A stretch of 64,000 nucleotides of DNA, taken from the sequence record MH791411.1. One strand, 5' to 3'. The position numbers and the translations under genes were made by a program. The stretch's first letter is position 1; each line of letters begins with the position of its first letter. The notes under the pieces are model-generated. The model had not been told where the DNA came from, made no database searches, and saw only the letters and a program-made list of their open reading frames with translations. Positions 1 to 59,168 of this stretch are shown here, piece after piece. Source of the DNA: Escherichia phage Ecwhy_1.

Positions 1-1473
1 AATGGAAATGAAGTTCTTGTTATGATTAACATCAAATATACTGCTGAAACCTGGGAATTTGATGCGAATGGCGTTGAATATGTGTTCGTTGGTGGTGATA
101 AAGTTCGTTTTTACTTCGTTTCTTCTAAAAAGATAACTGATATTAGTACTGGTAGTGTTCAAAGTGACAAAATTGAAATTTTATCATCAAATACCACAAG
201 CAATAGTAATGCTGGGTTGACAAGTAACATAGATTTCCAAATTTATGACACAATTCAACAAGAAAACGGGTATCTTGATGGTTCTCGTGTGGTTATCACC
301 TCTGAAAACGTTGATAGTAATGGAATCCCACTAGAACCTAATCAATTCAGAGAAATTGTACCAAATTGGACTGGTGAAGATTCAGTTAAATATGGTGGTA
401 TATTGGTTTTCCAAGAAAACGATGATTTCACTATATCAGTACTGTCATTACCGAATGATACTTTCACTATTCTTGATTCTTCATGGGCTTATACAATGGA
501 TCAAGCACTTGCAGAAACTAATGCGTATAAGAGAAGTGAATTTGTTCGCAACAATGCTATTCGATCAACAACATTGAGTGGTATCTATAGTAAAGGTTCA
601 GGCTTTATAGTTGGCTTTAACTATGATGGTAAATATTACTTCATTGAACAAACTGTTGGTAATAATAATGACCGTTTAAACCAATTAATTGAGAACTTGA
701 CCTATTCTGATGATACAACTGCTGCAACTCCTGAACTTGCGTTTTATCGTGCTATTGTTAATATCGGTACTAATGCTGATGTTAACCAAAAGTTAGATTA
801 TTATGGTTATAAAGATGTAACTTCACAATATACCGTAAAAACGAATGCAAGAACTGGTATTGATTTCCACTGGAAACATTATGCACCAGATGATAATCGC
901 ATTGACCCAAGTAGAACAAACTTGATTGACATGTATGTATTAACCAATTCATACAAAACTGAAGTTGATGTATGGTTGAAGAATGGAACACAAGGTAATA
1001 TGCCTAAACCGCCAACATCTGTTGAATTGAAAGACATTTTTAAAGAAGTTGAACAAAAAATAGTCATCAGTGACAGTATTATTTGGCATAGTGCAGAATA
1101 TCTACCATTATTTGGTGCGAGTGCTGCTGAAGATTATAAAGCAGATTTTAAAGTCGTCAAATTGCCTAACAGTACAATGAGTGATGATGAAATTCGTCAA
1201 AATGTCGTAGCACTAACTAACGAGTATTTTAATGTTGACAACTGGGATTTTGGTGAAAGTTTCTATTACACAGACTTGTGTACATACATTCATTCCCAAT
1301 TAGGACGACATATTAGTACTATTGTTATCGTAGCTCAAAACCCTAACTCTAAATTTGGCTCACTATTTGAAATCCCTTCACGTTCTGACCAGATTTTCTT
1401 AAGTACTGCATCAGTTGATAACGTACAGATAGTCAATTCCTTGGCTAAGAGTAACATTAACATTGGTTCATAA
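1..1473 (+). CDS. Structural protein, 5'-truncated; hypothetical, possibly fibre or tail associated
   Basis: ORF-track frame stays open back to base 1 (NGNEVLV...) so the gene starts upstream of the window. Long ORF with consistent codon usage; contains a DGKYYF motif related to the GDYYY motif in the downstream fibre-like proteins; followed by a hairpin terminator. Confidence 0.6.
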   Translation, partial: NGNEVLVMINIKYTAETWEFDANGVEYVFVGGDKVRFYFVSSKKITDISTGSVQSDKIEILSSNTTSNSNAGLTSNIDFQIYDTIQQENGYLDGSRVVITSENVDSNGIPLEPNQFREIVPNWTGEDSVKYGGILVFQENDDFTISVLSLPNDTFTILDSSWAYTMDQALAETNAYKRSEFVRNNAIRSTTLSGIYSKGSGFIVGFNYDGKYYFIEQTVGNNNDRLNQLIENLTYSDDTTAATPELAFYRAIVNIGTNADVNQKLDYYGYKDVTSQYTVKTNARTGIDFHWKHYAPDDNRIDPSRTNLIDMYVLTNSYKTEVDVWLKNGTQGNMPKPPTSVELKDIFKEVEQKIVISDSIIWHSAEYLPLFGASAAEDYKADFKVVKLPNSTMSDDEIRQNVVALTNEYFNVDNWDFGESFYYTDLCTYIHSQLGRHISTIVIVAQNPNSKFGSLFEIPSRSDQIFLSTASVDNVQIVNSLAKSNINIGS

Positions 1474-11525: not shown

Positions 11526-11560
11526 CAAAAAGGAGAGCAAATGCTCTCCTTTTCTTTTTT
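11526..11560. terminator. Bidirectional intrinsic terminator
   Basis: AAAAA-aggagagc-aaat-gctctcct-TTTCTTTTTT; perfect 8-bp stem with an A-run on one side and a T-run on the other, lying between the convergent giant gene (+) and the ClpA-like gene (-). Confidence 0.8.
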
Positions 11561-13847
11561 ACGCAATAACTTTTTCTACTGCTTTAGTGCGTTTAGGTTT
11601 GATAGCCAATTTACCATCAATCACATCAAACGTCACGTTACCACCATTAACTAGAGAACCACACAACATCTCTTTAGCTAGTGGAACACGGATGTTTTGC
11701 TCAATAGTGCGTTTCATTGGACGTGCACCCATCCCAACTTTAACACCATTTGTTGCCAACCACTCACGTGCCGCTTTAGTCAGGGAAACTTTAACTTTGC
11801 GGTCTTTGATTTGTTCATTCAGACTACCCATGAACTTATCAATGATGCTGTCAATCGCTTCGCTGCTTAGGTCTTTGAATGTCACAATACTATCGATACG
11901 GTTGATGAATTCAGGTGGCAAGAATGCTTTAATAGCTTTATCTTGTGCTGTATCACTACCGCTCATCCCAATACTACGCTTGGTTGAATCTGCTGCACCA
12001 AGGTTAGTCGTCATAATAACAGTTACGTTATTGAAGTAAACAGTTTTACCTTGTGAACCAGTCAAACGTCCTTCGTCCAGAACCTGTAGGAAGGTTAGTA
12101 GTACTTTACGATCAGCTTTTTCGATTTCATCAAGCAACAGTACTGCATTCGGGAACTGCTCAATCTTGTCGAGTAGCAGACCGTTACCAGAATCGTGACC
12201 AACATAGCCTGGAGGTGAACCAATCAGTTTAGCAACAGTATGTTCCTGTGAAAACTCGGACATATCGAAACGAATCAGTTCGGAACCAGTTGCATCAGCC
12301 AGTGCTTTGGTAATTTCAGTTTTACCAGTACCAGATGGACCAACAAACATGAATGCACCTTGAACACTTGATTTATCACGCAGACCAGCACGAGCTACCA
12401 TCACGTTATCAACCAGTTTCTGTACTGCTTCTTCTTGACCGTATACACGAGAACGGAGTGCATCTGGTAGATTACGCATACGTTCACTTTCAGTGCAAGC
12501 AACCACGTTAATATCTAGGTTTGCGATACCTGCAACAACTTCTTGAATCAGTGCAACAGTGATGATGTTATCATCAGTTTCACGAGAACGTACTTTCGCT
12601 GCTGCCGCATCCATTAGGTCGATTGCTTTGTCAGGGAAGTGTTTGTTCTTCAGGAACTTATCACTTAGTGTAATAACTGCATCCATTGCTTCAGTACTGA
12701 ACTCTACGTTATGGAAAGTTTCATAAGTAGATTTCAAACCATTCACAATCGCACGGGTTTCATCAATTGTTGGCTCAACTACATCAATTTTCATGAAACG
12801 GCGAGTTAGTGCACTATCTTTTTCGATGTTTTTACGATATTCATCGTAAGTTGTTGCACCGATTACACGAATCTCACCACGAGATAGTGCAGGTTTGAGC
12901 ATGTTGCTCATATCCATAGAACCGTTGCTTGCTGACCCAGCACCAACCATAATATGGATTTCATCGATGAACACAATAGTGTTTTCACGTTTCTTCAGTT
13001 CTTTTAGTAGGTTATCGATACGTTCTTCGAACTCACCACGGTACTTAGTACCAGCAGTCAGTGCACCTACGTTCAGAGACAGAATTTCAACATCTTTAAG
13101 ATGCTCTGGTACTTCACCATCAGCGATTGCCTGTGCTAGACCATCAATGATTTGAGTTTTACCAACACCAGCTTCACCAGTCAGGATGGCATTCTTCTTA
13201 GTCTTACGGGCCAGAGTTTCAATCAGTGCAGAAAGCTCTTTCTGGCGACCAATCATTGGGTCAAGTTTACCTTCTTTTGCAAGTGCGGTTAGGTTAGTGG
13301 TGTAATCTTCTAAACCTTTTTGTTTGGACGATGGTTGCTGTTGTGCCACTTTTTTCTCCCCAGTTGGCTCATCACTAATGCTTTGAAGGTTGATTCCGTT
13401 GTCGATTGCTTCTACGTGCTTCTGTAGAGTTCGTGCTGCTTCAGTACAAGTGATACCCTCTTCACGCAATGCTGCTTCTAGTGCAGTATTTGGGAAGGAC
13501 AAACACTCAAACAGTACAAAATAAGCATCAATTGAGAAATCATCACGTTTAAGTTGCTCAATTACTGATTTCTTAGAAAGTTCCTGAACTACACGGTTCA
13601 CGAGAAGTGATGTGCGGTTCGCTTCATCACCATCAGCACTTTTAGGTGCATGTGGGAATGTTGTATTCTTCAGATATGCAATCAAACGACCGTGTAGGTT
13701 GTCTGCATCGATGTTCATATCTTCAAATACTGCTTTGATGCTATCGATTGTCAGTACTGTAGCACTTAGATGGTCAATAGTCAAGAATGTATGACCCAGA
13801 GAAGTTGCCAGTTCGTCGCTTTTTTTGAATAATTGGGTAAGATTCAT
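11559..13847 (-). CDS. clpA: ClpA-type ATP-dependent protease ATP-binding (unfoldase) subunit homolog
   Basis: ClpA-like N-domain (MNLTQLFKKSDELATSLGHTFLTIDHL...). Two AAA+ modules with Walker A motifs GEAGVGKT and GPSGTGKT and sensor/arginine-finger regions. KRSIGMSGSD aligns with the E. coli ClpA ClpP-docking IGL loop. The start is the ATG at 13847, preceded by AGGAGA; the ORF track's GTG at 13871 lies inside the promoter/5'UTR. Confidence 0.85.
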   Translation of the reverse strand: MNLTQLFKKSDELATSLGHTFLTIDHLSATVLTIDSIKAVFEDMNIDADNLHGRLIAYLKNTTFPHAPKSADGDEANRTSLLVNRVVQELSKKSVIEQLKRDDFSIDAYFVLFECLSFPNTALEAALREEGITCTEAARTLQKHVEAIDNGINLQSISDEPTGEKKVAQQQPSSKQKGLEDYTTNLTALAKEGKLDPMIGRQKELSALIETLARKTKKNAILTGEAGVGKTQIIDGLAQAIADGEVPEHLKDVEILSLNVGALTAGTKYRGEFEERIDNLLKELKKRENTIVFIDEIHIMVGAGSASNGSMDMSNMLKPALSRGEIRVIGATTYDEYRKNIEKDSALTRRFMKIDVVEPTIDETRAIVNGLKSTYETFHNVEFSTEAMDAVITLSDKFLKNKHFPDKAIDLMDAAAAKVRSRETDDNIITVALIQEVVAGIANLDINVVACTESERMRNLPDALRSRVYGQEEAVQKLVDNVMVARAGLRDKSSVQGAFMFVGPSGTGKTEITKALADATGSELIRFDMSEFSQEHTVAKLIGSPPGYVGHDSGNGLLLDKIEQFPNAVLLLDEIEKADRKVLLTFLQVLDEGRLTGSQGKTVYFNNVTVIMTTNLGAADSTKRSIGMSGSDTAQDKAIKAFLPPEFINRIDSIVTFKDLSSEAIDSIIDKFMGSLNEQIKDRKVKVSLTKAAREWLATNGVKVGMGARPMKRTIEQNIRVPLAKEMLCGSLVNGGNVTFDVIDGKLAIKPKRTKAVEKVIA

Positions 13848-13885
13848 GTATTCTCCTAAATGAGTAGTCACTCTAATTAATAAAC

Positions 13886-13913
13886 ATTATATCACATTCT
13901 TTGCGTTTGTCAA
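13886..13913 (-). promoter_or_regulatory. Sigma70-consensus promoter, TTGACA-N16-TGaTATAAT, reading leftward
   Basis: Minus strand reads ccTTGTTGACAaacgcaaagaatgTGaTATAATg: perfect -35, 16-nt spacer, extended -10. Sits about 33 nt upstream of the ClpA ATG. The same 12-mer (cattatatcaca on the + strand) recurs at 43184 and 55526. Confidence 0.7.
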
Positions 13914-13943
13914 CAAGGTAAATAAAGATATACCCGATTTATT

Positions 13944-15452
13944 TTGGAGACAAACATGGCATATAGAATGTGGAAAAAAGGTAGAACCAATGATTACAAG
14001 TTCATTGACTCTGCCATAGCAGAACAATACAACATCGGTGGTGTTGACATGTGGCTTTATGCCTATGTCGGACCAAAACAAGTCGCTGATAACACTGATT
14101 TATCATACGGCGGTGATTATTATGGATCAGATAGTACCGTTGTGTCAAGCATTGGTGATTTAATTTTTGGTGACACTCCAAGTCGTAACTATAATCTCGA
14201 AGCTATCACCTTAAGTTGCGTCTACCAAGTCCAAGAAGCAACTCCTGACTTGAAAATCCCAGGATTGTTCTTCAACTTTAACACTATGGACATCACAATT
14301 CATTATAACACAATGATTCAGCGTTTGGGAAGAAAAATTATGCCAGGTGACGTAATCGAACTTCCTAACTTACGTGATTTTGATGTACTTGGTAAAGATT
14401 CTGGTTTAAACCGCTTCTATGTAGTACAAGATGGGTTTAGAACGTCAGAAGGTTACTCAGTTACATGGCAACATCACATTTACAAACTCCGTGTTAAACC
14501 TCTTACTGATTCACCAGAGTACTCTGACCTTCTAGGTAACAATAACTACCCTGATGACCCAGATGATCCAAACAACGGCAATGGTAATACTGATGATGGC
14601 TCTTCAGAGAACAGCAGCTATGGTAATGAAATGGATATTATGAACCGTATCATTATGCAAGCTGATGATGAAGTACCATACATTCATTTTACTAACGAAC
14701 ACTTGTTCGATGACAGACCAGATACTGTTGATTTGTCTAAGTATATGCTAAATGGATACGAATTACCAGAGGAACCAGCAAATAAAATGTATTTCCTCAA
14801 GAAAACTTACCCAGTACTGAAAGAACTATCTAATGATACATGGATTTCTGTAGAAGTCAAGCGTGGAACAATCTTTCCTCGCAAACCGATGGATGGTGAC
14901 TTCTTCTTTAAAGAAAACGAGGCTGATGTCACTGGCTTCTCATTGTATCAATACGATAAATCTGCCAAAAAGTGGCTAAATTGTGATGTTGAGTATACTA
15001 CAGAAAGCACACCACCACAAGGGGTTGATGATTTTTATATTGAATACAAAGAACCACACATTTATCAGTACTTAAATGGTAAATGGGGAGAACCAGAAGT
15101 AACTTACGTTAATGACCCATTCACTTCTAATAGTGTTTATGGAAATATCGATTCACAACAAGATTATCGTCCTAAGATTCCTCCAGCACGAGGTACAGTT
15201 CCTGAAGGTAATATGTTCCCAAGTGATGCAGTTGATGGTGATTACTACTATCGTACCGATTATACACCAGTAACCCTATGGGAATACAGTGCGTCCAAGA
15301 ATTCTTGGGTGATTTTCGATTACGGTGGTAGAAAACCGTGGGAAGGTGCAGATCTTGCTCTAACAGAATTTGTTAATAGCCCGAACCGTGTACCATTACA
15401 TGATGCAGTTAAACCTAATACAGCGTATCGTATACATAAGGATTCAGAATGA
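13944..15452 (+). CDS. Structural protein, putative tail fibre or receptor-binding component (hypothetical)
   Basis: RBS tTGGAGAcaaacATG. Asn/Asp/Gly-rich linker (NNYPDDPDDPNNGNGNTDDG). Repeated C-terminal modules carrying DGDFFFKEN and DGDYYYRTDY motifs that are also present in the giant ORF and the 654-aa fibre. ATGA-coupled to the next gene. Confidence 0.6.
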   Translation: METNMAYRMWKKGRTNDYKFIDSAIAEQYNIGGVDMWLYAYVGPKQVADNTDLSYGGDYYGSDSTVVSSIGDLIFGDTPSRNYNLEAITLSCVYQVQEATPDLKIPGLFFNFNTMDITIHYNTMIQRLGRKIMPGDVIELPNLRDFDVLGKDSGLNRFYVVQDGFRTSEGYSVTWQHHIYKLRVKPLTDSPEYSDLLGNNNYPDDPDDPNNGNGNTDDGSSENSSYGNEMDIMNRIIMQADDEVPYIHFTNEHLFDDRPDTVDLSKYMLNGYELPEEPANKMYFLKKTYPVLKELSNDTWISVEVKRGTIFPRKPMDGDFFFKENEADVTGFSLYQYDKSAKKWLNCDVEYTTESTPPQGVDDFYIEYKEPHIYQYLNGKWGEPEVTYVNDPFTSNSVYGNIDSQQDYRPKIPPARGTVPEGNMFPSDAVDGDYYYRTDYTPVTLWEYSASKNSWVIFDYGGRKPWEGADLALTEFVNSPNRVPLHDAVKPNTAYRIHKDSE

Positions 15453-16792
15453 AAATAGATTATTATTATGATGGTCAATTTCGTCGAGTACTGAAACATC
15501 TTATCAGAGTGTTTGGTGAATTTCAAGTACAAAATGGTGTTGATGCTGACGGAAAACCAAAATATAAGAAAGTTCCTTGCCGCTATGCAGATATTTCACG
15601 TATGGCAGCAGCAATTATTAATGGTAACAGTGAGAACGTGCTTCCAACAGCACCAATCATGACCATTAGTGTAAACCAACTTAAACTAGATCGCAAGTCA
15701 GTTCGTTCAAACGCAAATGAAACATTAGTTATGGGGACTAACAAGTCCCCTGGAATTAACGAATATACTAAAGACTTAGATAAACAGTATAAAGTAACTC
15801 GTCATAACCCAGTACCTTGGACATTTACGTTTGATGTTAATATTTGGGTTACACAAACACAAACTAAAATGGAACTATTTGAGCAAATTTCAACATTGTT
15901 TGCTCCTAGTATTCAATTACAACTCTCCGAGAACCCACTGGATTGGACATCATTGAGTGATGTGGAGTTGATTGACTGTCAATTTACTACTCGTGGTTTC
16001 CCACAAGGAACCGATAGTGATTTGGATATAATGGTATTGACATTTGAAACCACAATTTGGTTCTCTTTGCCAGCTATTGTTGAGAAACCAAAACTTATCC
16101 AACAAATCACCACCAATATTAAAGGTGCTCGTGATGAACTTGATTTTGAAATTGGTAATTACTCGGATATCATTACTGATGTATTCACACCAAAGAACTT
16201 ATGTATTAAAGTTGATGAAATAACAAACTCTGAACTTAATATTCCAGATACTTACCAACTCACTCTTGTTAGTCAATCACTATCAGAAACATCACCAAAT
16301 GGTGGGATTTATTCATGGGAAAAATACCTTAAGTACTTGGACCCAGAATATGAAGACAAGACTGTAGGTATTAAATTCCAACAAGCTATAGAAGAGGATA
16401 ACCCACTAAAAGGACATATCTCTTCATTTGGGGAAGGGGCTGATTCTAACAAGATTGTAGTTCAGCTTGATAATAGTAATTATACTGTTGATTATACAAT
16501 ACATGGATTCATTAGTAAAGACTCTTTGTTATATAACGCACTACCTGAACAATATTATGTAAATAATAGCATACATAACATCATTTACAAAGAGACTGAA
16601 ATCCCAGCGAACTATTTGTTTAAAATTACCAATGATGGAGCAGAACTTATTGAGCCATCGCGAGTACACAACTATGTTTATAATATGGAAGATAGTGGAT
16701 ATTATAGATATAATGACAAATTCAAATGGCATAAGAGTATTATGTCAGTATATCGTCAGGGATATTGGAAAATAACTTTCACTGACAAATAA
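15449..16792 (+). CDS. Hypothetical structural protein
   Basis: Start overlaps the upstream stop by 4 nt (ATGA). Long ORF in the same transcription unit as the structural genes. No recognisable catalytic motif. Confidence 0.6.
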   Translation: MKIDYYYDGQFRRVLKHLIRVFGEFQVQNGVDADGKPKYKKVPCRYADISRMAAAIINGNSENVLPTAPIMTISVNQLKLDRKSVRSNANETLVMGTNKSPGINEYTKDLDKQYKVTRHNPVPWTFTFDVNIWVTQTQTKMELFEQISTLFAPSIQLQLSENPLDWTSLSDVELIDCQFTTRGFPQGTDSDLDIMVLTFETTIWFSLPAIVEKPKLIQQITTNIKGARDELDFEIGNYSDIITDVFTPKNLCIKVDEITNSELNIPDTYQLTLVSQSLSETSPNGGIYSWEKYLKYLDPEYEDKTVGIKFQQAIEEDNPLKGHISSFGEGADSNKIVVQLDNSNYTVDYTIHGFISKDSLLYNALPEQYYVNNSIHNIIYKETEIPANYLFKITNDGAELIEPSRVHNYVYNMEDSGYYRYNDKFKWHKSIMSVYRQGYWKITFTDK

Positions 16793-16804
16793 GGAGGTGT
16801 TGTT

Positions 16805-17269
16805 ATGAATGAAGCAGTAGGTGCTATATTTTTATCTAAAAGTACTGGACACATGATGTTAAACTTGAGATCAGAAAGAAGTACGTATTCTAACAACTGG
16901 GCATTTGTTGGTGGGAAGCTTGAGTATAATGAAACTCCGTTACAGGGTCTTATGCGTGAGATTAAAGAAGAGCTAGGTGATTCTATTCCAACGATAATAG
17001 ATATTATACCATTTGATGTATTTTGTACGAAGAATGGTAAATTTAAATATTATTCATTTGTCATTGTAGTTGAAAATGAATTCGTACCTACTTTAAATCA
17101 TGAGAGTTCTGGTTATGCATGGGTTAAGATTGGCTCATGGCCCAAACCATTACATCCTGGTGCAAAAAACACATTACTCAACACAAATTTAATGAAGGAT
17201 TTCTATTCATTGTGGGAAAGTATACGACAAGGTACACAGTTTGTCAACAGCTTACCATATCGATATTAA
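16805..17269 (+). CDS. Nudix hydrolase
   Basis: Nudix box GGKLEYNETPLQGLMREIKEELGD matches GX5EX7REUXEEXGU. GGAGG-type RBS (aaggaggtgttgttATG). Followed by a bidirectional terminator. Confidence 0.75.
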   Translation: MNEAVGAIFLSKSTGHMMLNLRSERSTYSNNWAFVGGKLEYNETPLQGLMREIKEELGDSIPTIIDIIPFDVFCTKNGKFKYYSFVIVVENEFVPTLNHESSGYAWVKIGSWPKPLHPGAKNTLLNTNLMKDFYSLWESIRQGTQFVNSLPYRY

Positions 17270-17278
17270 TAAAAAAAA

Positions 17279-17307
17279 GGAGCCAATGGCTCCTTTTTTC
17301 TTTTTAT
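17279..17307. terminator. Bidirectional intrinsic terminator
   Basis: AAAAAAAA-ggagcc-aat-ggctcc-TTTTTTCTTTTT between the convergent Nudix gene (+) and the 366-aa gene (-). Confidence 0.75.
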
Positions 17308-18404
17308 ACCCCAATTAGTGGGATACCTGTTATATTAAGTAGAACCGATGCTTGAAGCTTAACTGACTCACCTGCCGAAAGGTTGTTTACTATACCATCG
17401 ACGCGGAACCCTAAGTTTTTATTAGAGTTAAGAGAGTTAACCACCCAGTTTTCGTAATCCGCTTTTGTAATACCATTCGGATTTGGGAGAGTTGGGTCAA
17501 CACCATTAATTACCATAGATACATCCCAATTAGGGCGACTACTTGTAATTACATCCTTGATTGATTCTAGTTGTGTTATGCGACGTGGGTCTGGAATCTG
17601 ACTTGCACCAATTGAACCAGGAACAAATGTACCTTGGTTATCAACATAGAACTGACCTTTAATGAAAAATGTTTTTGAATTATACGGAAGAGAAACAATT
17701 TCACCTGATGAATCACTAACTTCACGAATCATAATTTTCAATTCATAAAAATAGTTACTACCAAATTCAAACACACCAGTACCATTTGTAAATGTTGTCC
17801 AGTTATTTGAATCAACCTGTGAAGTACCACCCATATTGAAGTACGCTAATGGCTTAGTACTGTTACTTTGTGTAAATTCAATATATTTCTTACCTGTATC
17901 ATAGTTGATATCAAGTAGTGTGGAGTACTCTTTATTTTCTGGACGAGATGTTTGAATTTCACGCCATTCTTTATTTTTCATTAGGACACGAAGGGAATCA
18001 CCATTACTGGTAAGAACCATACGACCCATAATACTATTTTCACCATCTGGTACTGTGTTGAAAATTGAAATCATTGGGATAGATGCCCAGTCAGCTTCAG
18101 ATGCAGTATCTACTGGCTGACGAGCATTATCAACTAATGCAAGAAGTAGTTCGCCAGTGTTGCCAGTATTTCTGTACCAAATCTGACCATTAACGTTACC
18201 ACGAGGTGCAGTAGCTCCACTGAAGTTCTCAACCAAGTGGAGGAAGTTTTCGTTCCATGCTTGACCGTAACCAACTTTATTTCGACCTGCAAAGTTTAAC
18301 GGTACTGGGTTACTACCAGGTTGGTTTGGTCCTAATATTACGTTATTTGGAATGGTAGCATAAACGCTACCATTACTTCTATAAATTGTATAACTTACAC
18401 TCAT
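17304..18404 (-). CDS. Hypothetical structural protein (tail/baseplate candidate)
   Basis: 366-aa ORF, first of three tightly packed minus-strand ORFs (366/202/165 aa) separated by 9-12 nt. Asn/Gly/Thr-rich beta-type composition. Confidence 0.55.
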   Translation of the reverse strand: MSVSYTIYRSNGSVYATIPNNVILGPNQPGSNPVPLNFAGRNKVGYGQAWNENFLHLVENFSGATAPRGNVNGQIWYRNTGNTGELLLALVDNARQPVDTASEADWASIPMISIFNTVPDGENSIMGRMVLTSNGDSLRVLMKNKEWREIQTSRPENKEYSTLLDINYDTGKKYIEFTQSNSTKPLAYFNMGGTSQVDSNNWTTFTNGTGVFEFGSNYFYELKIMIREVSDSSGEIVSLPYNSKTFFIKGQFYVDNQGTFVPGSIGASQIPDPRRITQLESIKDVITSSRPNWDVSMVINGVDPTLPNPNGITKADYENWVVNSLNSNKNLGFRVDGIVNNLSAGESVKLQASVLLNITGIPLIGV

Positions 18405-18416
18405 ATCATCACCTTA

Positions 18417-19025
18417 TTATTGTAGTTGGACACGAACTGTGTATTTGATTTGCAAAACACGGTTAGCACTTTTCTCAACTGGGTGAAAAATAATATGGGT
18501 AAGTGGAATACCGCTATCACCATTTGTATATAAACCCAATTCGTCAAATACATATGTCCCATCCATGCTAGTACCAGAGCTAACACCTTGGTCAGATGGC
18601 TCACCTAAACCTAATGTACAAATACAGACGATATCAGTGTAAGCTTGACCTGGAATGTGAACAGTTGTAATGTTGTTATATTGTGAATCAATACCAGCAG
18701 AGATACGTGGGTTGATTTTTTTCAGATAAGTCTGAGAATATAGACCACCGAAAGAAGTAACGCGTGGTTTCTTGTATGTGATACGACCAGTACTCAAAAC
18801 TACTGTTCCACCATTACCAAAACGCATCTCACTAATAGATCCAATAGGAATACCAGTACTATCTTGATTATAAGCCAACGCATTAGCAATAGCAGTACTC
18901 ATATTTTCAGGGTGAATTGCGTTTGATTTATCCAAAACGATTTTTTGGTTAGATGGATCAGTAACGTCAGTAATTAGTACATGACCCTTAACAAATAGTT
19001 TTGGTTGTTCTGTTTCTAATTTCAT
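18417..19025 (-). CDS. Hypothetical structural protein
   Basis: 202-aa ORF translationally close to its neighbours on both sides. Confidence 0.5.
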   Translation of the reverse strand: MKLETEQPKLFVKGHVLITDVTDPSNQKIVLDKSNAIHPENMSTAIANALAYNQDSTGIPIGSISEMRFGNGGTVVLSTGRITYKKPRVTSFGGLYSQTYLKKINPRISAGIDSQYNNITTVHIPGQAYTDIVCICTLGLGEPSDQGVSSGTSMDGTYVFDELGLYTNGDSGIPLTHIIFHPVEKSANRVLQIKYTVRVQLQ

Positions 19026-19034
19026 TTCTAATCC

Positions 19035-19532
19035 TTAGTAGTTAATTAAAATTTGTTCTAACTTACCAGCTAAACTTTTTTGTACATCAGATGGATACTT
19101 GCTAATGTAATCACGGTCAATACCAACTTTCAGATAGGTAAAGTTTCCGGTTAAGGTTTCAGCGAATGTACCAGTTGTACCTTGTTCTCTAATAAGGTCA
19201 CCACCATTTGGGTTAAGAATGACATTATCAGTAAATTCAAGATAGAAGTTGCAGCTTTCGGTAAATTTAATTGGGAACCAATCATCGTCAGATGGATTAC
19301 TTGCCAGTGTAGCGAGTACGTAAATTCTACCAATGAAGTTACGTAGGGTAAAGGATATTGTATGTAATCCTGTAGTACTACCATAATAGCCGCCACTAGC
19401 TAATGGTAATGTTTGTTCGTTCCAATGATAATCTAAGTTAGCAGGATACCAGCTATCTGATTCAGGAAATTCTTGCCATGAACCATCTTTAGTTTTTCTT
19501 TTGAAGAGGAAGTCTTTTGATCTTAATGCCAT
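19035..19532 (-). CDS. Hypothetical structural protein
   Basis: 165-aa ORF; first gene of the leftward three-gene unit, divergent from the collagen-like fibre gene. Confidence 0.5.
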   Translation of the reverse strand: MALRSKDFLFKRKTKDGSWQEFPESDSWYPANLDYHWNEQTLPLASGGYYGSTTGLHTISFTLRNFIGRIYVLATLASNPSDDDWFPIKFTESCNFYLEFTDNVILNPNGGDLIREQGTTGTFAETLTGNFTYLKVGIDRDYISKYPSDVQKSLAGKLEQILINY

Positions 19533-19641
19533 TGTTAAGCCCTTTTAGTAGTGAACTTTCATTTATTTATTAATGGCAACGAAATGTATTTTGTACTGAT
19601 AAATATTGGTATATGACATTAACTCATACAAGGGAAATATT

Positions 19642-20769
19642 ATGACAATTTCATTCAACAATGGGTCAGGTGGTTCATGTAATAATTCTGGCATCAAAAG
19701 TTTAGTTATTAACGCTGCTGGACATTTAATTGTAACCTATTCCGACAATACAATCCAAGACCTAGGTCTAGTGGTTGGACAAAATGGTGCTAACGGTAGA
19801 AACTTTTATCCAAATGAGATAGGTTTTGAAGTTCCTAATGAACTCTTCCGTGTTGGTGAAGAACTAGGGTGGTGTTATCTTAGTCTTGCAAATGGCACTA
19901 GTACTTTATATTTCAAATCAAACGATGCACAAGAAGCAATTAGTACTTGGAACCGTGTAGAGTTTGGTAAAGGCGATACTGGTGAAACTGGTAAACCATT
20001 CCACATTGACAGTTCTGGTACGGTGTTTCCAACAACTGGTCTTTTCAATAATTACACATTCTATAATACTGAAGATGGTAAATTATATTTCTATCAAAGC
20101 GTAACTGCAACATGGAGTGATGGTATTCCTTTCCGTGGTGAACAAGGTCTACGTGGTCGTTTCCATATTGATAGTACTGGTAGTCAATTCCCAAGCATTG
20201 ATAATCTACCACAAGATTATTGCTTCTATAACACGACAGATGGTAATTTGTATTATGTCGATATCGTAACTACATCATCAACCCCAACTAAAGAGTGGAG
20301 TGCTGGTATCTTATTCCGTGGAAAAGACGGTGAAGAAGGTAAGCAAGGTGAACAAGGTATTCAGGGTGAACCAGGTAAAGATACAGTTGTTATCATCAAC
20401 ACTATTGATCATTCATGGACTAACGCATTGTTAGTTATTGGTACATGCCCTGCTGGATACCTAGTAACTAATATCGAAGTTGATATTAACCAAGCATATG
20501 ATGAACCAGTAAATGAAATGTTTGTACGTTTCGGTGGTGAAGCACAAGAAGATATTGGTGGTACTGTAATTGCACCTGTTGATTATTTCGATATCAACCG
20601 CAAAATGCGTTACATTGTTAACGAAACCAACCACGAAGTATCAAGTAAAGATGAAATCATTTCTTGTGTATTCAATGATTCCGTAAACAACAGTTCATTT
20701 GGTGAAATGAAGATCGTTTGTACTTTATCATGGCAAGCACCTATTCAGCCTATTCAAGATAACATTTAA
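19642..20769 (+). CDS. Collagen-like repeat tail fibre protein
   Basis: Gly-X-Y triplet run GKDGEEGKQGEQGIQGEPGKD plus shorter runs (FRGEQGLRGR). Two repeated beta modules (FHIDSSGTVFPTTGLF.../FHIDSTGSQFPSIDNL...). Likely start is the ATG at 19642 (aagggaaatattATG); the ORF-track start at 19606 is a TTG. Confidence 0.7.
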   Translation: MTISFNNGSGGSCNNSGIKSLVINAAGHLIVTYSDNTIQDLGLVVGQNGANGRNFYPNEIGFEVPNELFRVGEELGWCYLSLANGTSTLYFKSNDAQEAISTWNRVEFGKGDTGETGKPFHIDSSGTVFPTTGLFNNYTFYNTEDGKLYFYQSVTATWSDGIPFRGEQGLRGRFHIDSTGSQFPSIDNLPQDYCFYNTTDGNLYYVDIVTTSSTPTKEWSAGILFRGKDGEEGKQGEQGIQGEPGKDTVVIINTIDHSWTNALLVIGTCPAGYLVTNIEVDINQAYDEPVNEMFVRFGGEAQEDIGGTVIAPVDYFDINRKMRYIVNETNHEVSSKDEIISCVFNDSVNNSSFGEMKIVCTLSWQAPIQPIQDNI

Positions 20770-40119: not shown

Positions 40120-40140
40120 ATATAATTATATCACCTTTTT
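40120..40140 (-). promoter_or_regulatory. Extended -10 promoter (TGaTATAAT) for the leftward DprA-like/thyA operon
   Basis: Minus strand reads aaaaaggTGaTATAATtatatttgtaacaacatacATG. No good -35, but the TGn extension is present. Located just downstream of the VWA-gene terminator. Confidence 0.5.
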
Positions 40141-40156
40141 CCAAGCTGTCCCGCTG

Positions 40157-40187
40157 AAAAAAGTAGAGAACGGAATTTTCCGTTCTC
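40157..40187 (-). terminator. Rho-independent terminator (minus strand)
   Basis: gagaacgg-aatttt-ccgttctc, 8-bp perfect stem. On the minus strand it is followed by TTTTTT; placed after the VWA/metallopeptidase gene stop at 40200. Confidence 0.75.
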
Positions 40188-40199
40188 ATTATTTAGTAC

Positions 40200-41609
40200 T
40201 TAGCTACGTTGACGCTTTTTGTCAGCTTCATATTCGTAGTGTACAGTTTCGCCAAATGGTGCTTGTTTGTTAGGATTACTGTGGATAACAAACAGTGTCT
40301 TACAGTAATCAGGATCACCCCATGACTGCCACGGCTCACCATCTGTAAACATAATAAGCTGTTTAGGCTTATAGTTGTCATGCTTCATATGAACCCATAC
40401 TGCTTCAAAGTCAGTACCACCACCACCTTTCACTGGATATTCGAGAATCTTACTCTCTTCACCAGTTTTGTAATCTTTCACAGTATAAACTTCAGTATCG
40501 AACGTCATGATACGGATTTTAAATTGTTTAAACTGCTTAGTGATACCCAGTACTTCACTGATGAAATCACGGAGCATATCTTCAGAGATAGAACCGGATG
40601 CATCTAGTGCAATTGCAATATCAATATCATCATCTGGTTTCATACCAGGGAAGATTGGATTCCCGTAGAATGAACCAGAACTACCAAAACCAGCACCCCA
40701 TGAACGACGATTAGGATTTTGATAAGTTGCATCAGACTTCAACCAGCTACGCAGTGTGCGGTGAAGTTTGGAACGCCAGTCAATCTTAGGTTCTTTGAAG
40801 TTGTTAATCATACGTGCGATTTCAGCAGGAGTACCACCTGCACGAGCAGCATTCATCATTGCTGTTTTGAAATCATCCATATAATCACGTTTTTGTTTAT
40901 CACTTGAACCACCTTCTTGACCTTCTTGTGGAACGTCATGCTGGTCGATTGTTGTACCTTTGCCTTTACCATCTTTGATATCACCAAAAGTACCGCGTGA
41001 TTTACCTTCACCCTCACCACTACCAGCCTGTGGATTTCCTTCACCTTCTCCGTCTTGATCCTGCTTATCTTCTTCTTCGAGAATGTTATAAATCTCTTCA
41101 GCAGTCATACCATCGTACTTTTTATCGTACAGCCATTGGCTTTGGATTTTACCAATTTTATCACGAACAAGAATCTGGTTAATTGCATAGTCAGCAGCAC
41201 GGTTATAACGCTGCGGGTCACGCATACCACGACGCAAGAAGTGGTCATATGCACAGTGAAGAATCTCATGACAGATAACTGCAATCAGGTTTTCATCGGT
41301 CAAACCTTCTGTCATTTCTTTAAGTTGTTCTTCAGTTACTTCAGGATGTTTCTCACGAATTGCTTCTTCGTATGCTGACTTTTTGGATTGGTCCTGAATA
41401 CCCATGATGAATTCTACGTTGTAGAATAAATGCTTACCATCTACAGCCAAAGTACGACACCATGTGTTGTTTGCAACTGGACGCAGACGAGAAGCCAGTA
41501 CACCAAAGAATGGGAATGTTAGCATTAAAGATGTGCGAGCTAAGATCAGACGATCTTGACATTCTTTCTGGAGAGCCGGAGTAACATCACTGAAACGTTT
41601 ATCTGACAT
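40200..41609 (-). CDS. VWA-domain protein with N-terminal HExxH metallopeptidase-like domain (DUF2201-type partner of a MoxR ATPase)
   Basis: Zinc-binding motif VICHEILHCAYDH in the N-terminal half. C-terminal von Willebrand A domain with MIDAS motif IALDASGSIS, and …ILEYPVKGGGGTDFEAV…IMFTDGE. Gly/Glu-rich acidic linker between the two domains. Confidence 0.8.
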   Translation of the reverse strand: MSDKRFSDVTPALQKECQDRLILARTSLMLTFPFFGVLASRLRPVANNTWCRTLAVDGKHLFYNVEFIMGIQDQSKKSAYEEAIREKHPEVTEEQLKEMTEGLTDENLIAVICHEILHCAYDHFLRRGMRDPQRYNRAADYAINQILVRDKIGKIQSQWLYDKKYDGMTAEEIYNILEEEDKQDQDGEGEGNPQAGSGEGEGKSRGTFGDIKDGKGKGTTIDQHDVPQEGQEGGSSDKQKRDYMDDFKTAMMNAARAGGTPAEIARMINNFKEPKIDWRSKLHRTLRSWLKSDATYQNPNRRSWGAGFGSSGSFYGNPIFPGMKPDDDIDIAIALDASGSISEDMLRDFISEVLGITKQFKQFKIRIMTFDTEVYTVKDYKTGEESKILEYPVKGGGGTDFEAVWVHMKHDNYKPKQLIMFTDGEPWQSWGDPDYCKTLFVIHSNPNKQAPFGETVHYEYEADKKRQRS

Positions 41610-41632: not shown

Positions 41633-41660
41633 ATAAAAGAAGGATACCATGTGGTATCCT
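41633..41660 (-). terminator. Intergenic hairpin/partial terminator between the MoxR and VWA genes
   Basis: aggatacca-tg-tggtatcct inverted repeat. On the minus strand it is followed by TCTTTTAT. Lies in the 75-nt gap between the MoxR stop (41685) and the VWA start (41609). Confidence 0.45.
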
Positions 41661-41684
41661 CCTTGTCAACACTCTTTTTAATTA

Positions 41685-43013
41685 TTAACCAAGAGAGCGT
41701 GCTTTACGTACTAGGTCAGAGTACTTCATAACGAAGTCTTTAAACGCTGGTACATCTTTAATCGTAATCGCTACTTTATGAAGCGTGATGGTACGAATCG
41801 CCAGTACTGCCAGTTCTGCTTGAGTTGCAGAGAAGTTATGGTCTAGGAAGGTGATGAAGTTGTTGCACAGCTTACCCCAATCTTCCACTGGTAGACGTTG
41901 TTCTTGCTTCTCATTGTAGAGGTCGATAATTTTGTAAACCAGATTCAGAGTGATGAAGTAGTTCGCGGAAATATCAAGCGAAGCATCAATCTCTTTAATC
42001 TCACCCTGTAGGATGGACATGGTATCTGGTAGTTTAGCTACGTTATCAACATACTCGATGTATTCAGTTGCTACGCCTTCACCAACACGACCTGCAATCA
42101 TCGCACGGAACACTTCTTTATCAATGTTCTTAACTTTCTTCAGATCTTCGTAGCGTGCTACTGCTTCCCATGAACGTGGAGAAGTACCACCACAGTGAGA
42201 AGGATCTTGTGGGCTAAGGGTGTTGAAGTGTTTAGCACCAGTGTTGTTGATGAACGCTACAGTTGCTGGGTTCAAACGCTTACCAATCGCATAATCGTTA
42301 ATCCAATCTTGATGATAAGGAATCATTTCGATGTGGGTCATACGGTCACGCAGTGGTGTAGCTAGAGAGAACGTTACACCGCCATCAGTTTCACGGTTAC
42401 CTGCTGCGAGAATCAGTGCAGTCTTAGGTAGCTTCATCTCACCAACACAACGGTCGAGGATTAGCTGATAAGACGCTGCCTGTACAATCGGCATTGCAGA
42501 GTTGATTTCGTCAAACAGAATAACACCTTTCCAATCTGGAGACAGTTTCAGTACTTTAGGTGCTGCCCACACAACTGCTGTTTCAGCGATGTAATCTTGT
42601 GCACTAGCCAGTTCAGATTCAATCAGTTGCTTACCATCCATATCAAGGAACACTTTCTCTGGAACTGGGATACCGCGAAGGTCACTTGGTTCAATCTGAG
42701 ACAAACGGAAATCGATAAAGTTAGTGTCTTGGTCGATTAGTTTGGCTTCAAACGCTGCCAGTTCACGGCGAAGTTGATCAGCATTTTCAGTATCAGCTTC
42801 GATTTGTTGTTTCATGAACTCAATTTTTGCCACGTTATCTTTACGCAGTGGGTAGTTCTCATCAGCGTATTGACGTGCGATAGCAGATTTACCGATACCA
42901 GGGCTACCCCAAATCATCAGGCTATCTTGAATCATGTCAGCCAGTGCCATTGCTTCTTTAGCTTTCTTAGGAGTCAGTTTTACGTTCAGGATATCGTTGT
43001 TTTGAGTAGACAT
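41685..43013 (-). CDS. MoxR/CobS-like AAA+ ATPase
   Basis: Walker A IWGSPGIGKSAI, Walker B VILFDEINSA, sensor region TALILAAGNRETDGG. A coiled-coil insertion of about 50 aa lies between Walker A and B (EFMKQQIEADTENADQLRRELAAFEAKL). Adjacent VWA partner. Confidence 0.8.
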   Translation of the reverse strand: MSTQNNDILNVKLTPKKAKEAMALADMIQDSLMIWGSPGIGKSAIARQYADENYPLRKDNVAKIEFMKQQIEADTENADQLRRELAAFEAKLIDQDTNFIDFRLSQIEPSDLRGIPVPEKVFLDMDGKQLIESELASAQDYIAETAVVWAAPKVLKLSPDWKGVILFDEINSAMPIVQAASYQLILDRCVGEMKLPKTALILAAGNRETDGGVTFSLATPLRDRMTHIEMIPYHQDWINDYAIGKRLNPATVAFINNTGAKHFNTLSPQDPSHCGGTSPRSWEAVARYEDLKKVKNIDKEVFRAMIAGRVGEGVATEYIEYVDNVAKLPDTMSILQGEIKEIDASLDISANYFITLNLVYKIIDLYNEKQEQRLPVEDWGKLCNNFITFLDHNFSATQAELAVLAIRTITLHKVAITIKDVPAFKDFVMKYSDLVRKARSLG

Positions 43014-43053
43014 GTATATTTTCCTTTTGTTGGATAAAATCGTTTAGGTTTCT

Positions 43054-43082
43054 ATTATAGCCAATCCGTGGGCAAAAGTAAA
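43054..43082 (-). promoter_or_regulatory. Proximal promoter P3 (TTTACT-N17-TATAAT) for the MoxR gene
   Basis: Minus strand reads cTTTACTtttgcccacggattggcTATAATagaaacc, about 40 nt upstream of the MoxR ATG. Confidence 0.4.
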
Positions 43083-43120
43083 GGAACTGTGTTAAAAGAA
43101 TTTTTAACTTATCAGTTCCT
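43081..43120 (-). promoter_or_regulatory. 5'-leader stem-loop
   Basis: ggaactg-(23 nt)-cagttcc inverted repeat in the leader transcribed from the upstream tandem promoters. Confidence 0.3.
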
Positions 43121-43178
43121 TTGTTACTTCATGAATCATCCGTGTATTTAAAAAGGCATTTCTCTTTGCCGTCTTGAT

Positions 43179-43222
43179 GTGGTCATTATATCACATCGTT
43201 CAGGCTTGTCAACAACTTTTTT
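43179..43222 (-). promoter_or_regulatory. Tandem promoter copy 1: TTGACA-N16-TGaTATAAT (minus strand)
   Basis: + strand gtggtcATTATAtcacatcgttcaggctTGTCAAcaactttttt. Reverse complement gives a perfect -35 and an extended -10 with 16-nt spacer. Confidence 0.7.
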
Positions 43223-43269
43223 ATTTCTTTTTCAATCTCACATCTTGTGATTTTGAAAACTTGCTTCGT

Positions 43270-43315
43270 GGTGGTCATTATAACACATCATTCGGCGTTG
43301 TCAACATCTTTTTTT
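43270..43315 (-). promoter_or_regulatory. Tandem promoter copy 2: TTGACA-N16-TGtTATAAT (minus strand)
   Basis: + strand gtggtcATTATAacacatcattcggcgtTGTCAAcatcttttttt. A direct repeat about 91 bp from copy 1 with the same architecture. Confidence 0.7.
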
Positions 43316-43329
43316 CTTTATTTTCGAAG

Positions 43330-43707
43330 CTACATGTGCATCGAAAATAACATTCTAAAATCATCACCACACAATGTTAACTCTGTAACTATCATTGCGT
43401 CCGAGAGGTATATGTACTGCCCTTCTACATAGTAGGGTGAAGTACATATCCTATCAAGCGATGTAAAGATTATAGAACTTTTGAACTCTCTTTGCAAGGG
43501 GATTTTTGTAAATTCGTAAAGAATGTTTTCTTTACAAATTGTATATCCAAACTTGCTAAGTCTTAAACCACCGCCAGTTCTGAAATTTTCAAAAATTGAC
43601 ATCAGAAGCATACGGTCTGTTAATTCAGCGTCTGATCCATGTACTTCTCTAACTTTTAAAAGTACATCGTTTTGAAATTCAGTACTGTTGTGTGGTTCAG
43701 GAATCAT
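43330..43707 (-). CDS. Hypothetical protein (125 aa)
   Basis: ATG lies 4 nt after the stop of the upstream 130-aa gene (tightly coupled). No motif recognised. Confidence 0.45.
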   Translation of the reverse strand: MIPEPHNSTEFQNDVLLKVREVHGSDAELTDRMLLMSIFENFRTGGGLRLSKFGYTICKENILYEFTKIPLQREFKSSIIFTSLDRICTSPYYVEGQYIYLSDAMIVTELTLCGDDFRMLFSMHM

Positions 43708-59062: not shown

Positions 59063-59168
59063 GATAAAATATTATACCACAGCTATAACGCATAATCTTA
59101 TCTCTTTATCATCAAGTGATGTTCAGATACTAGTAATTATATCAGAAGATGTTAACTTGTCCCAGCTT

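Follow-up and report, generated by a model that had tools for sequence, protein, structure and literature searches.

The 64,000-nt stretch of DNA analysed here, referred to as the window, derives from Escherichia phage Ecwhy_1 (MH791411.1). It carries on its minus strand, on which the promoter region was analysed, a 316-bp gap with two tandem consensus sigma-70 promoters (P1 and P2) followed by a leader with two hairpins (HP1 and HP2), all upstream of a gene for an AAA-type ATPase and a partner gene encoding a VWA-like protein. We consider it rather probable that P1 and P2 are strong promoters for the host RNA polymerase, that their output is attenuated or regulated in the conserved leader and that the ATPase/VWA operon is controlled from this gap. 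What is new here is the conserved leader, the promoters being of a kind common in this phage and strong promoters in tandem being classical. The leader appears to be a structured RNA, conserved across genera and apparently undescribed so far. The gap, its elements and the ATPase gene are as follows:

43014-43329 (316 bp), minus strand: promoter-bearing gap between an upstream 125-amino-acid open reading frame and the ATPase gene.
43277-43325, minus strand: P1, with a UP-like A-rich tract at 43325-43305, the -35 element TTGACA at 43304-43299, TG at 43285-43284 and the -10 element TATAAT at 43282-43277.
43185-43233, minus strand: P2, with an A-rich tract at 43233-43213, the -35 element TTGACA at 43212-43207, TG at 43193-43192 and the -10 element TATAAT at 43190-43185.
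43136-43147, minus strand: ANGGA motif AUACACGGAUGA; in 18 of 19 distinct leaders ANGGA is present 14-20 nt 5' of HP1.
43073-43122, minus strand: HP1, AAAGGAACUG...CAGUUCCUUU plus a U-rich tract (hairpin 43122-43080; tract UUUACUUUUG, 43082-43073).
43054-43082, minus strand: P3, TTTACT-17-TATAAT, a 10/12 match lacking the TG, found by consensus scan; its -35 element lies inside the U tract of HP1 and its -10 element abuts HP2.
43060-43073, minus strand: HP2, GCC(C)A-CGGA-U(U)GGC, directly following the U tract and presenting GGA in the loop.
Up to 43026, minus strand: Shine-Dalgarno sequence AAAAGGAAAA of the ATPase gene, with GGA at 43024-43022.
41685-43013, minus strand: gene for the AAA-type ATPase (442 amino acids, N4 gp24-/MoxR-like; from the list of open reading frames), with its ATG at 43013.

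The region is 99.8-100% identical to that of the jumbo E. coli myophages fEgEco12, EC.P1, WPEC3/5, BF17 and vB_Ec-M-J (100% to fEgEco12 here), ~84% identical to that of Asteriusvirus (121Q, PBECO4, G17) and ~74% identical to that of the Klebsiella phages RaK2 and K64-1; judged by its sequence, the source of the window is a RaK2/121Q-like jumbo coliphage.

In every clade the elements between the promoter or promoters and the ATPase gene come in the same order, i.e. ANGGA, HP1, U-rich tract, HP2 and ribosome-binding site. An earlier note on this DNA had described HP1 as a hairpin with a 7-bp stem and a 23-nt loop; the hairpin and the 23 nt are present, while the arms are 10 nt long, not 7, and 100% complementary (43122-43113 / 43089-43080), and the 23 nt between them hold a further A-U helix of 6-7 bp, resulting in a long two-part stem with a predicted folding energy of -14.6 kcal/mol. 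Across relatives HP1 reaches -12 to -15 kcal/mol for the hairpin alone and up to -20.5 kcal/mol in longer segments with an upstream helix, and the 10 nt that follow contain 4-7 U. Its core ACUG/CAGU is invariant and the flanks covary, examples being AAGGCACUG/CAGUGCCUU, AAGACACUG/CAGUGUCUU, GCACUGG/CCAGUGC, AAAGGAACUG/CAGUUCCUUU and AGGACUG/CAGUCCU. Among 19 sequences 86.5% of the cells are paired, with double changes in five pairs (16 cells), and the covariation score is 0.213 versus 0.096 for shuffled data, a value reached by none of 500 shuffles; the slide control is best at 0, and RNAalifold independently predicts the same helix. HP1 is a canonical terminator by a simple scan in GAP32 and pEa50 (10 pairs closed by a 4-nt loop, with a T-rich tail), and in G17 it bears a terminator annotation from ARNOLD.

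HP2 has a stem of 3-6 bp, the sequence of which varies by clade (GCC/GGC, GCUU/AAGC, GCUCAA/UUGAGC, UCAGAU/AUCUGA, CCAAA/UUUGG), and an invariant GGA in its loop, which has the form N-GGA(-N). In a 16-sequence alignment 81.3% of the cells are paired and 17 are double-changed, the score being 0.517 compared to 0.172 after shuffling (0/500 reach it). The slide control is again best at 0 and second-best at +1, because three sequences have a loop that is one nucleotide longer. An HP1-type anchor followed by HP2 occurs once in the whole fEgEco12 genome, the ATPase upstream region of the distant phage PA5oct lacks this leader, and neither the window nor six relatives match any Rfam 15 family at the gathering threshold (best 13-24 bits versus thresholds of 48-114). 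Inspection of the leader fold revealed no evident alternative, i.e. antiterminator, pairing. Two further structures were considered and rejected: a small hairpin, GGCAAAGAGAAAUGCC plus U5, just past the P2 start is not kept in G17 or JNE01, and an inverted repeat at 43318-43350, spanning the upstream gene's stop codon, is not followed by a U tail on the gene strand and is missing in G17.

These data support a model according to which the E. coli sigma-70 RNA polymerase would start strongly at P1 and P2 from the onset of infection and HP1, which probably would also terminate the upstream late operon, would stop part of the resulting transcripts, the remainder reading through to the ATPase gene. 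The read-through RNA would bring HP2 to the ATPase start, and the leader would thereby set or regulate the output of the operon; extra promoter copies, and P3 in some lineages, would raise the flux past the HP1 attenuator. In GAP32 and pEa50 no promoter-like site is found between HP1 and the ATG, so that the ATPase gene could be reached only by read-through. With a terminator-like HP1 separating the gene from P1/P2, the strength of the promoters is no direct measure of the output of the operon. The earlier proposal of very high and very early expression of the operon is therefore overstated, HP1 intervening and P1/P2 resembling the promoter class of replication genes; very high expression as such is plausible.

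Several points weigh against this model. HP1 of the window is comparatively AU-rich, has a 10-bp outer stem with four G-C pairs, 23 nt between its arms and an interrupted U tract, obtains no call in the simple terminator scan and may terminate weakly. The promoter spacers measure 16 nt, the optimum being 17 nt, and fEgEco12 encodes a sigma-70-like factor, Gp519, which might serve P1 and P2. In this lineage P1 and P2 could be dispensable for the ATPase because of P3. The published reports on fEgEco12, RaK2, phAPEC6 and UE-S1 contain no promoter or transcript maps, RNA-seq being available only for the distant PA5oct. The timing is uncertain as well: the perfect -35 elements argue for immediate use by the host holoenzyme, and the likeness to the replication class together with the phage sigma-like genes would fit a middle phase.

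The promoters themselves are present where the earlier note had placed two consensus extended -10 sigma-70 promoters on the minus strand. By consensus scan both P1 (TGtTATAAT) and P2 (TGaTATAAT) are 12/12 matches with a 16-nt spacer and an extended -10 element, and their predicted starts lie at ~43272-43269 for P1 and ~43180-43178, within ACATCAAGACG, for P2. Both are intergenic, on the coding strand and upstream of the gene, the ATG of the ATPase gene being located ~257 nt downstream of P1 and ~165 nt downstream of P2. The two are indeed tandem copies, spaced by 92 bp from start to start instead of the proposed 91 bp, and the direct repeat is longer than the 45 bp first assigned to it, comprising 55 nt with 82% identity (43179-43233 / 43271-43325) and including the A-rich UP-like tract. 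A search for recurrence, which the note had recommended, finds the 38-nt core pattern only at P1 and P2 within the window.

Perfect TTGACA-N16-18-TATAAT sites number three in the window versus 0.19 expected. The third, TTGACA-16-TGaTATAAT at 13913-13886 (minus strand), precedes a ClpB-like AAA+ gene (ATG at 13847) by 39 nt. Baseplate and tail genes surround the divergent gap in which this promoter (13886-13913) lies, and both perfect-promoter loci of this late region thus lead into AAA+ ATPase genes.

The origin of the promoter pair was followed in an alignment of the gap from five phages and in the upstream regions of 28 related loci. P1 is found in all five aligned phages and aligns with the single promoter of RaK2; a single promoter at the P1 position is likewise present in the Munch-like clade (-35 element GGGACA), the Hallingskeid clade and the GAP32 and Eneladusvirus clades (-35 element TGAAAC(G)). 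By this comparison the P1 position is ancestral and P2 is an added copy common to the window clade and Asteriusvirus, the pair having arisen, as its sequence indicates, by a ~92-bp tandem duplication and representing paralogous copies of one module. Both copies are perfect in the window and in JNE01, in RaK2 P2 has decayed to TTGAAT-17-CATAAT, and in 121Q and G17 P1 has TACAAT as its -10 element and P2 is perfect. SP27 carries an exact 94-nt tandem duplication resulting in three promoters (SP27 locus 1686-1873) and is alone among ~45 related records in having a match long enough for an extra copy. In EJP2 (locus ~380-700) the ancestral promoter and HP1 come first, followed by a P2-like cassette, TTGACA-17-TATAAT..ACATCAAGACG, placed between HP1 and HP2; transcripts from this cassette would carry HP2 and not the terminator. 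The copy number at the locus thus ranges among relatives from one, in five more distant clades, to three, with every lineage examined keeping at least one perfect or 11/12 copy, and the module probably duplicates and decays recurrently by slippage between A tracts. As a separate observation, the ATPase promoter of GAP32 and Eneladusvirus has a -35-like TGAAAC that coincides in part with the stop codon, TGA, of the preceding gene (Eneladusvirus/GAP32 loci 1054-1059 and ~1032-1037).

The promoter population was surveyed in the complete assembled fEgEco12 genome, with expected numbers taken from Markov simulations. This genome contains 43 perfect TTGACA-16..18-TATAAT sites (0.8 expected) and 143 sites that deviate from this pattern at no more than one position, so that the rarity attributed to the locus by the earlier note applies only to the adjacency of two perfect copies, which is unique to this locus in fEgEco12. 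Another two perfect TTGACA-17-TATAAT matches that are neighbours, 78 nt apart at fEgEco12 274368-274474, lie inside duplicated coding starts, each with a ribosome-binding site, an ATG and a signal-peptide-like sequence, and probably represent coding repeats and not promoters.

Several promoter classes can be distinguished in fEgEco12. Sites of the type nnGACA-N13/14-TGnTATAAT (GGGACA, GAGACA, AGGACA and others) occur 27 times versus 0.2 expected, all 27 on the gene-rich strand; they are found upstream of gp32-like, primase and exonuclease genes, and this class, lying ahead of genes of replication and nucleotide metabolism, may constitute the phage's middle promoters. To this class belong GGGACA-16-TGaTATAAT sites of the window at 40125-40187 and 59136-59163 (both minus strand), the first directly after a 9-bp terminator hairpin (40187-40166). 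A GAGACA-16-TGcTATAAT site at fEgEco12 195695 is on the plus strand, in a stretch whose annotated genes are exclusively minus-strand, and may point to an antisense RNA or to a gene missed by the annotation. The early promoters of the terminal repeat form a stereotyped module, aaaaagtaTTGACA-16-..AGTACTGTATAAT..ACATCAAG. Those at fEgEco12 ~3400-19700 have the conserved ACATCAAG start region in common and carry a palindrome, AGTACT, just 5' of the -10 element (AGTACTGTATAAT or AGTACTGGCATAAT) and often again 5' of the -35 element, which could serve as an operator in early shut-off. Late genes carry ATAAATA, like T4 late promoters. These classes agree with the predictions made for a relative, CBB (PMC5259590); for CBB and likewise for GAP32, promoters of the RpoD-like type with UP-like elements had been predicted before (PMC5259590), and related phages, for which such promoters were predicted, rely on the host RNA polymerase (PMC7318152, PMC5259590).

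P1 and P2 are members of this known and abundant promoter population and not exotic. They mix its classes in combining the architecture of the nnGACA class (16-nt spacer, gaTGTGnTATAAT, TGTGnTATAAT) with a perfect -35 element, P2 additionally having the ACATCAAGACG start region that is shared with the early promoters of the terminal repeat. By spacer and TGTGnTATAAT they are nearer to the replication-gene class than to the terminal-repeat early class. Their architecture gives some room, though we judge it a possible rather than a likely explanation, to the view that P1 and P2 are middle-class promoters, used mainly by an RNA polymerase carrying a phage sigma-70-like factor or assisted by a phage activator and not at once by the unaided host holoenzyme. 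The spacer and the TGTGnTATAAT held in common with the promoters ahead of the gp32-like, primase and exonuclease genes fit this view, as do the sigma-like proteins encoded by the phage and the GGGACA or TGAAAC(G) found at -35 of the orthologous promoters elsewhere, TGAAACG defining a divergent promoter class tied to DNA-synthesis genes in CBB (PMC5259590). On the other side, P2 has at its start the ACATCAAGACG that characterises the early promoters of the terminal repeat, and the gene for the sigma factor Gp519 is missing from Ecwhy_1. Moreover, a perfect TTGACA together with an extended -10 element already makes an optimal site for E. coli sigma-70.

The arrangement of promoter, short AU-rich body, hairpin and U tail is the anatomy of a small-RNA gene, and P1 and P2 together with HP1 might accordingly produce RNAs of ~107 and ~199 nt that end at HP1 and act in trans, e.g. 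by sequestering CsrA, a GGA-binding regulator of the host, and the ATPase would depend chiefly on P3 or on a minor amount of read-through. Such a unit would be only ~60-75 nt long in GAP32 and pEa50, ANGGA lies in the body of 18 of the 19 leaders, AUACACGGAUGA resembles the CsrA consensus and the promoter amplification in SP27 would suit a titrating RNA. We nevertheless consider this improbable. HP2 lies beyond the terminator and yet covaries, which means that the read-through RNA is under selection and must be functional, and this favours an attenuating leader over a pure small-RNA gene; the body is otherwise poorly conserved, each short RNA would offer one GGA site (two with HP2), which is few for a sponge, and no Rfam family is matched.

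The GGA motifs raise the question of the protein that would read the leader. All cultured host genera in the set belong to the Enterobacterales, the IMG/VR-derived loci having no stated host, and Enterobacterales carry CsrA/RsmA. AUACACGGAUGA matches 10 of the 12 positions of the consensus RUACARGGAUGU, including ACA and GGA, other genera keeping ANGGA only. This consensus was obtained for CsrA by systematic evolution of ligands by exponential enrichment (SELEX), and CsrA prefers GGA in hairpin loops (PMC4347634). As in leaders and small RNAs bound by CsrA/RsmA, ANGGA motifs are conserved here, one GGA is located in the loop of a short covarying hairpin and a further GGA is part of the Shine-Dalgarno sequence. 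Unlike in full CsrA sites, ACA is not kept outside the E. coli phages, and the GGA motifs are short and also resemble ribosome-binding sites. A tblastn search of the fEgEco12 genome with an E. coli CsrA query detected no CsrA homologue (best E = 0.6). That the leader is a so far undescribed phage cis-regulatory RNA read by CsrA or by a phage RNA-binding protein, either gating read-through according to the physiological state of the host or yielding short RNAs that titrate CsrA during takeover, is a tentative idea to which we assign a small probability.

P3 bears on a further explanation. The third promoter element reported by the earlier note, TTTACT-N17-TATAAT, does exist, its -35 element being merely the U tract of HP1 and the element as a whole being lineage-specific. 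It is present only in the lineages of the window, Asteriusvirus, where it is conserved, RaK2 (TATCAT) and Hallingskeid (TGGTATAAT); the Munch-like, GAP32 and Eneladusvirus clades lack it. Transcripts starting at P3 would be devoid of both hairpins. If HP1, the first terminator-like structure past the upstream gene block, were nothing else than the terminator of the late operon, P3, as a reasonable 10/12 promoter downstream of it, could be the true ATPase promoter, with P1 and P2 being a neutral or decaying duplication or a sink or decoy for RNA polymerase; the decay of one copy in RaK2 and the TACAAT of P1 in 121Q and G17 would be in line with this. Such a scheme is very unlikely in our view, given that clades without P3 still have their sole promoter upstream of HP1 and that every lineage retains at least one perfect or 11/12 copy, both copies being perfect in the window and JNE01. 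Nothing that was tested supports the decoy or titration role that had been suggested for the duplicated promoters, and no observation speaks in favour of a decoy.

The 316-bp gap is non-coding. No open reading frame of at least 20 amino acids on either strand is common to the window, G17, JNE01, SP27 and RaK2, the open reading frames differing completely. WPEC3 annotates a 30-amino-acid hypothetical protein over both promoters (537-629 of its locus, corresponding to window 43186-43278, minus strand), which is almost certainly spurious: its ATG falls inside TATAATG of P1, no ribosome-binding site precedes it and relatives do not conserve it, the start being lost in G17, which has TACAATAAG. A candidate leader peptide of 11 amino acids, ATGATTCATGAAGTAACAAAGGAACTGATAAGTTAA, was rejected as well, RaK2 having only ATGAATTACTAA at the same place. 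That the repeat belongs to an unannotated coding sequence, the possibility by which the earlier note would have seen its reading undermined and which that WPEC3 annotation (43278-43186) alone might suggest, or that it resembles promoters by chance, is practically negligible, considering that no frame is conserved among relatives, that the ATG within the -10 hexamer is gone in G17 and that none of 100 shuffles reaches the three perfect sites counted in the window.

The locus invites comparison with well-studied phage systems. Tandem strong early promoters are classical in coliphages, e.g. A1/A2/A3 of T7 and the early promoters of T5 and T4. As in these arrays, several co-directional near-consensus sigma-70 promoters with A-rich upstream tracts and extended -10 elements lie within a few hundred base pairs, and P1 and P2 presumably capture the host polymerase efficiently; unlike them, P1 and P2 are located inside the late/structural region before one small operon and not at a genome end, represent a recent duplication of variable copy number and are directly followed by a terminator-like leader. 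Promoter-proximal terminators gating phage operons are known from lambda, i.e. PR'-tR' with 6S RNA and Q, and tL1/tR1 with N. The locus would share with these a strong constitutive promoter, a terminator-like hairpin within ~100-200 nt and the dependence of the downstream genes on read-through. It differs in that neither an antiterminator protein nor a qut/nut-like site nor an alternative antiterminator pairing could be recognised. The closest precedent for the promoters is found within the same phage group, in the promoters predicted for CBB and GAP32, which are of the same types and have the UP-like element, the orthologous ATPase promoter of GAP32 and Eneladusvirus being of the TGAAAC(G) type that forms the divergent class of that study (PMC5259590). 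The predictions are computational there as well as here, and that study makes no mention of the hairpins, the leader of the ATPase gene or the tandem arrangement (PMC5259590).

All genes around the locus are oriented on the minus strand. The neighbours of the ATPase gene are:

40200-41609, minus strand: partner gene (469 amino acids) with a putative metallopeptidase domain DUF2201_N and a VWA-like DUF2201 (Pfam E 3e-36 and 1e-21).
43330-43707, minus strand: 125-amino-acid open reading frame ending the upstream co-directional block, which follows genes annotated as virion structural (list of open reading frames and annotation).

The ATPase gene gives weak Pfam matches to AAA, AAA_3 and Mg_chelatase and is annotated in relatives as ATPase, gp24-like or MoxR. 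For the pair as such, Pfam bears out an AAA-type ATPase and a DUF2201_N/DUF2201 VWA-like protein. Between the two genes lies, at 41637-41669 (minus strand), a 12-bp terminator-like hairpin, AAGGAGGATACCACATGGTATCCTTCTT with a tail rich in T, which shares bases with a TTGACA hexamer; given this hairpin, strict co-transcription of the two genes may be in doubt. The ATPase has been found in virions by published proteomics of phAPEC6, which hints that its expression may have to last into late infection.

As a summary, the promoters by themselves add little, confirming that RaK2/121Q-like jumbo phages lean on many sigma-70-type promoters. The occurrence of one, two or three modules at one locus provides a natural copy-number series that is useful for testing promoter dosage. 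The ATPase/VWA pair is widespread among N4-like, rV5-like and jumbo phages, and the leader offers a testable handle on when and how this module is expressed. If its GGA motifs bind CsrA, the leader would link phage gene expression to a global regulator of the host.

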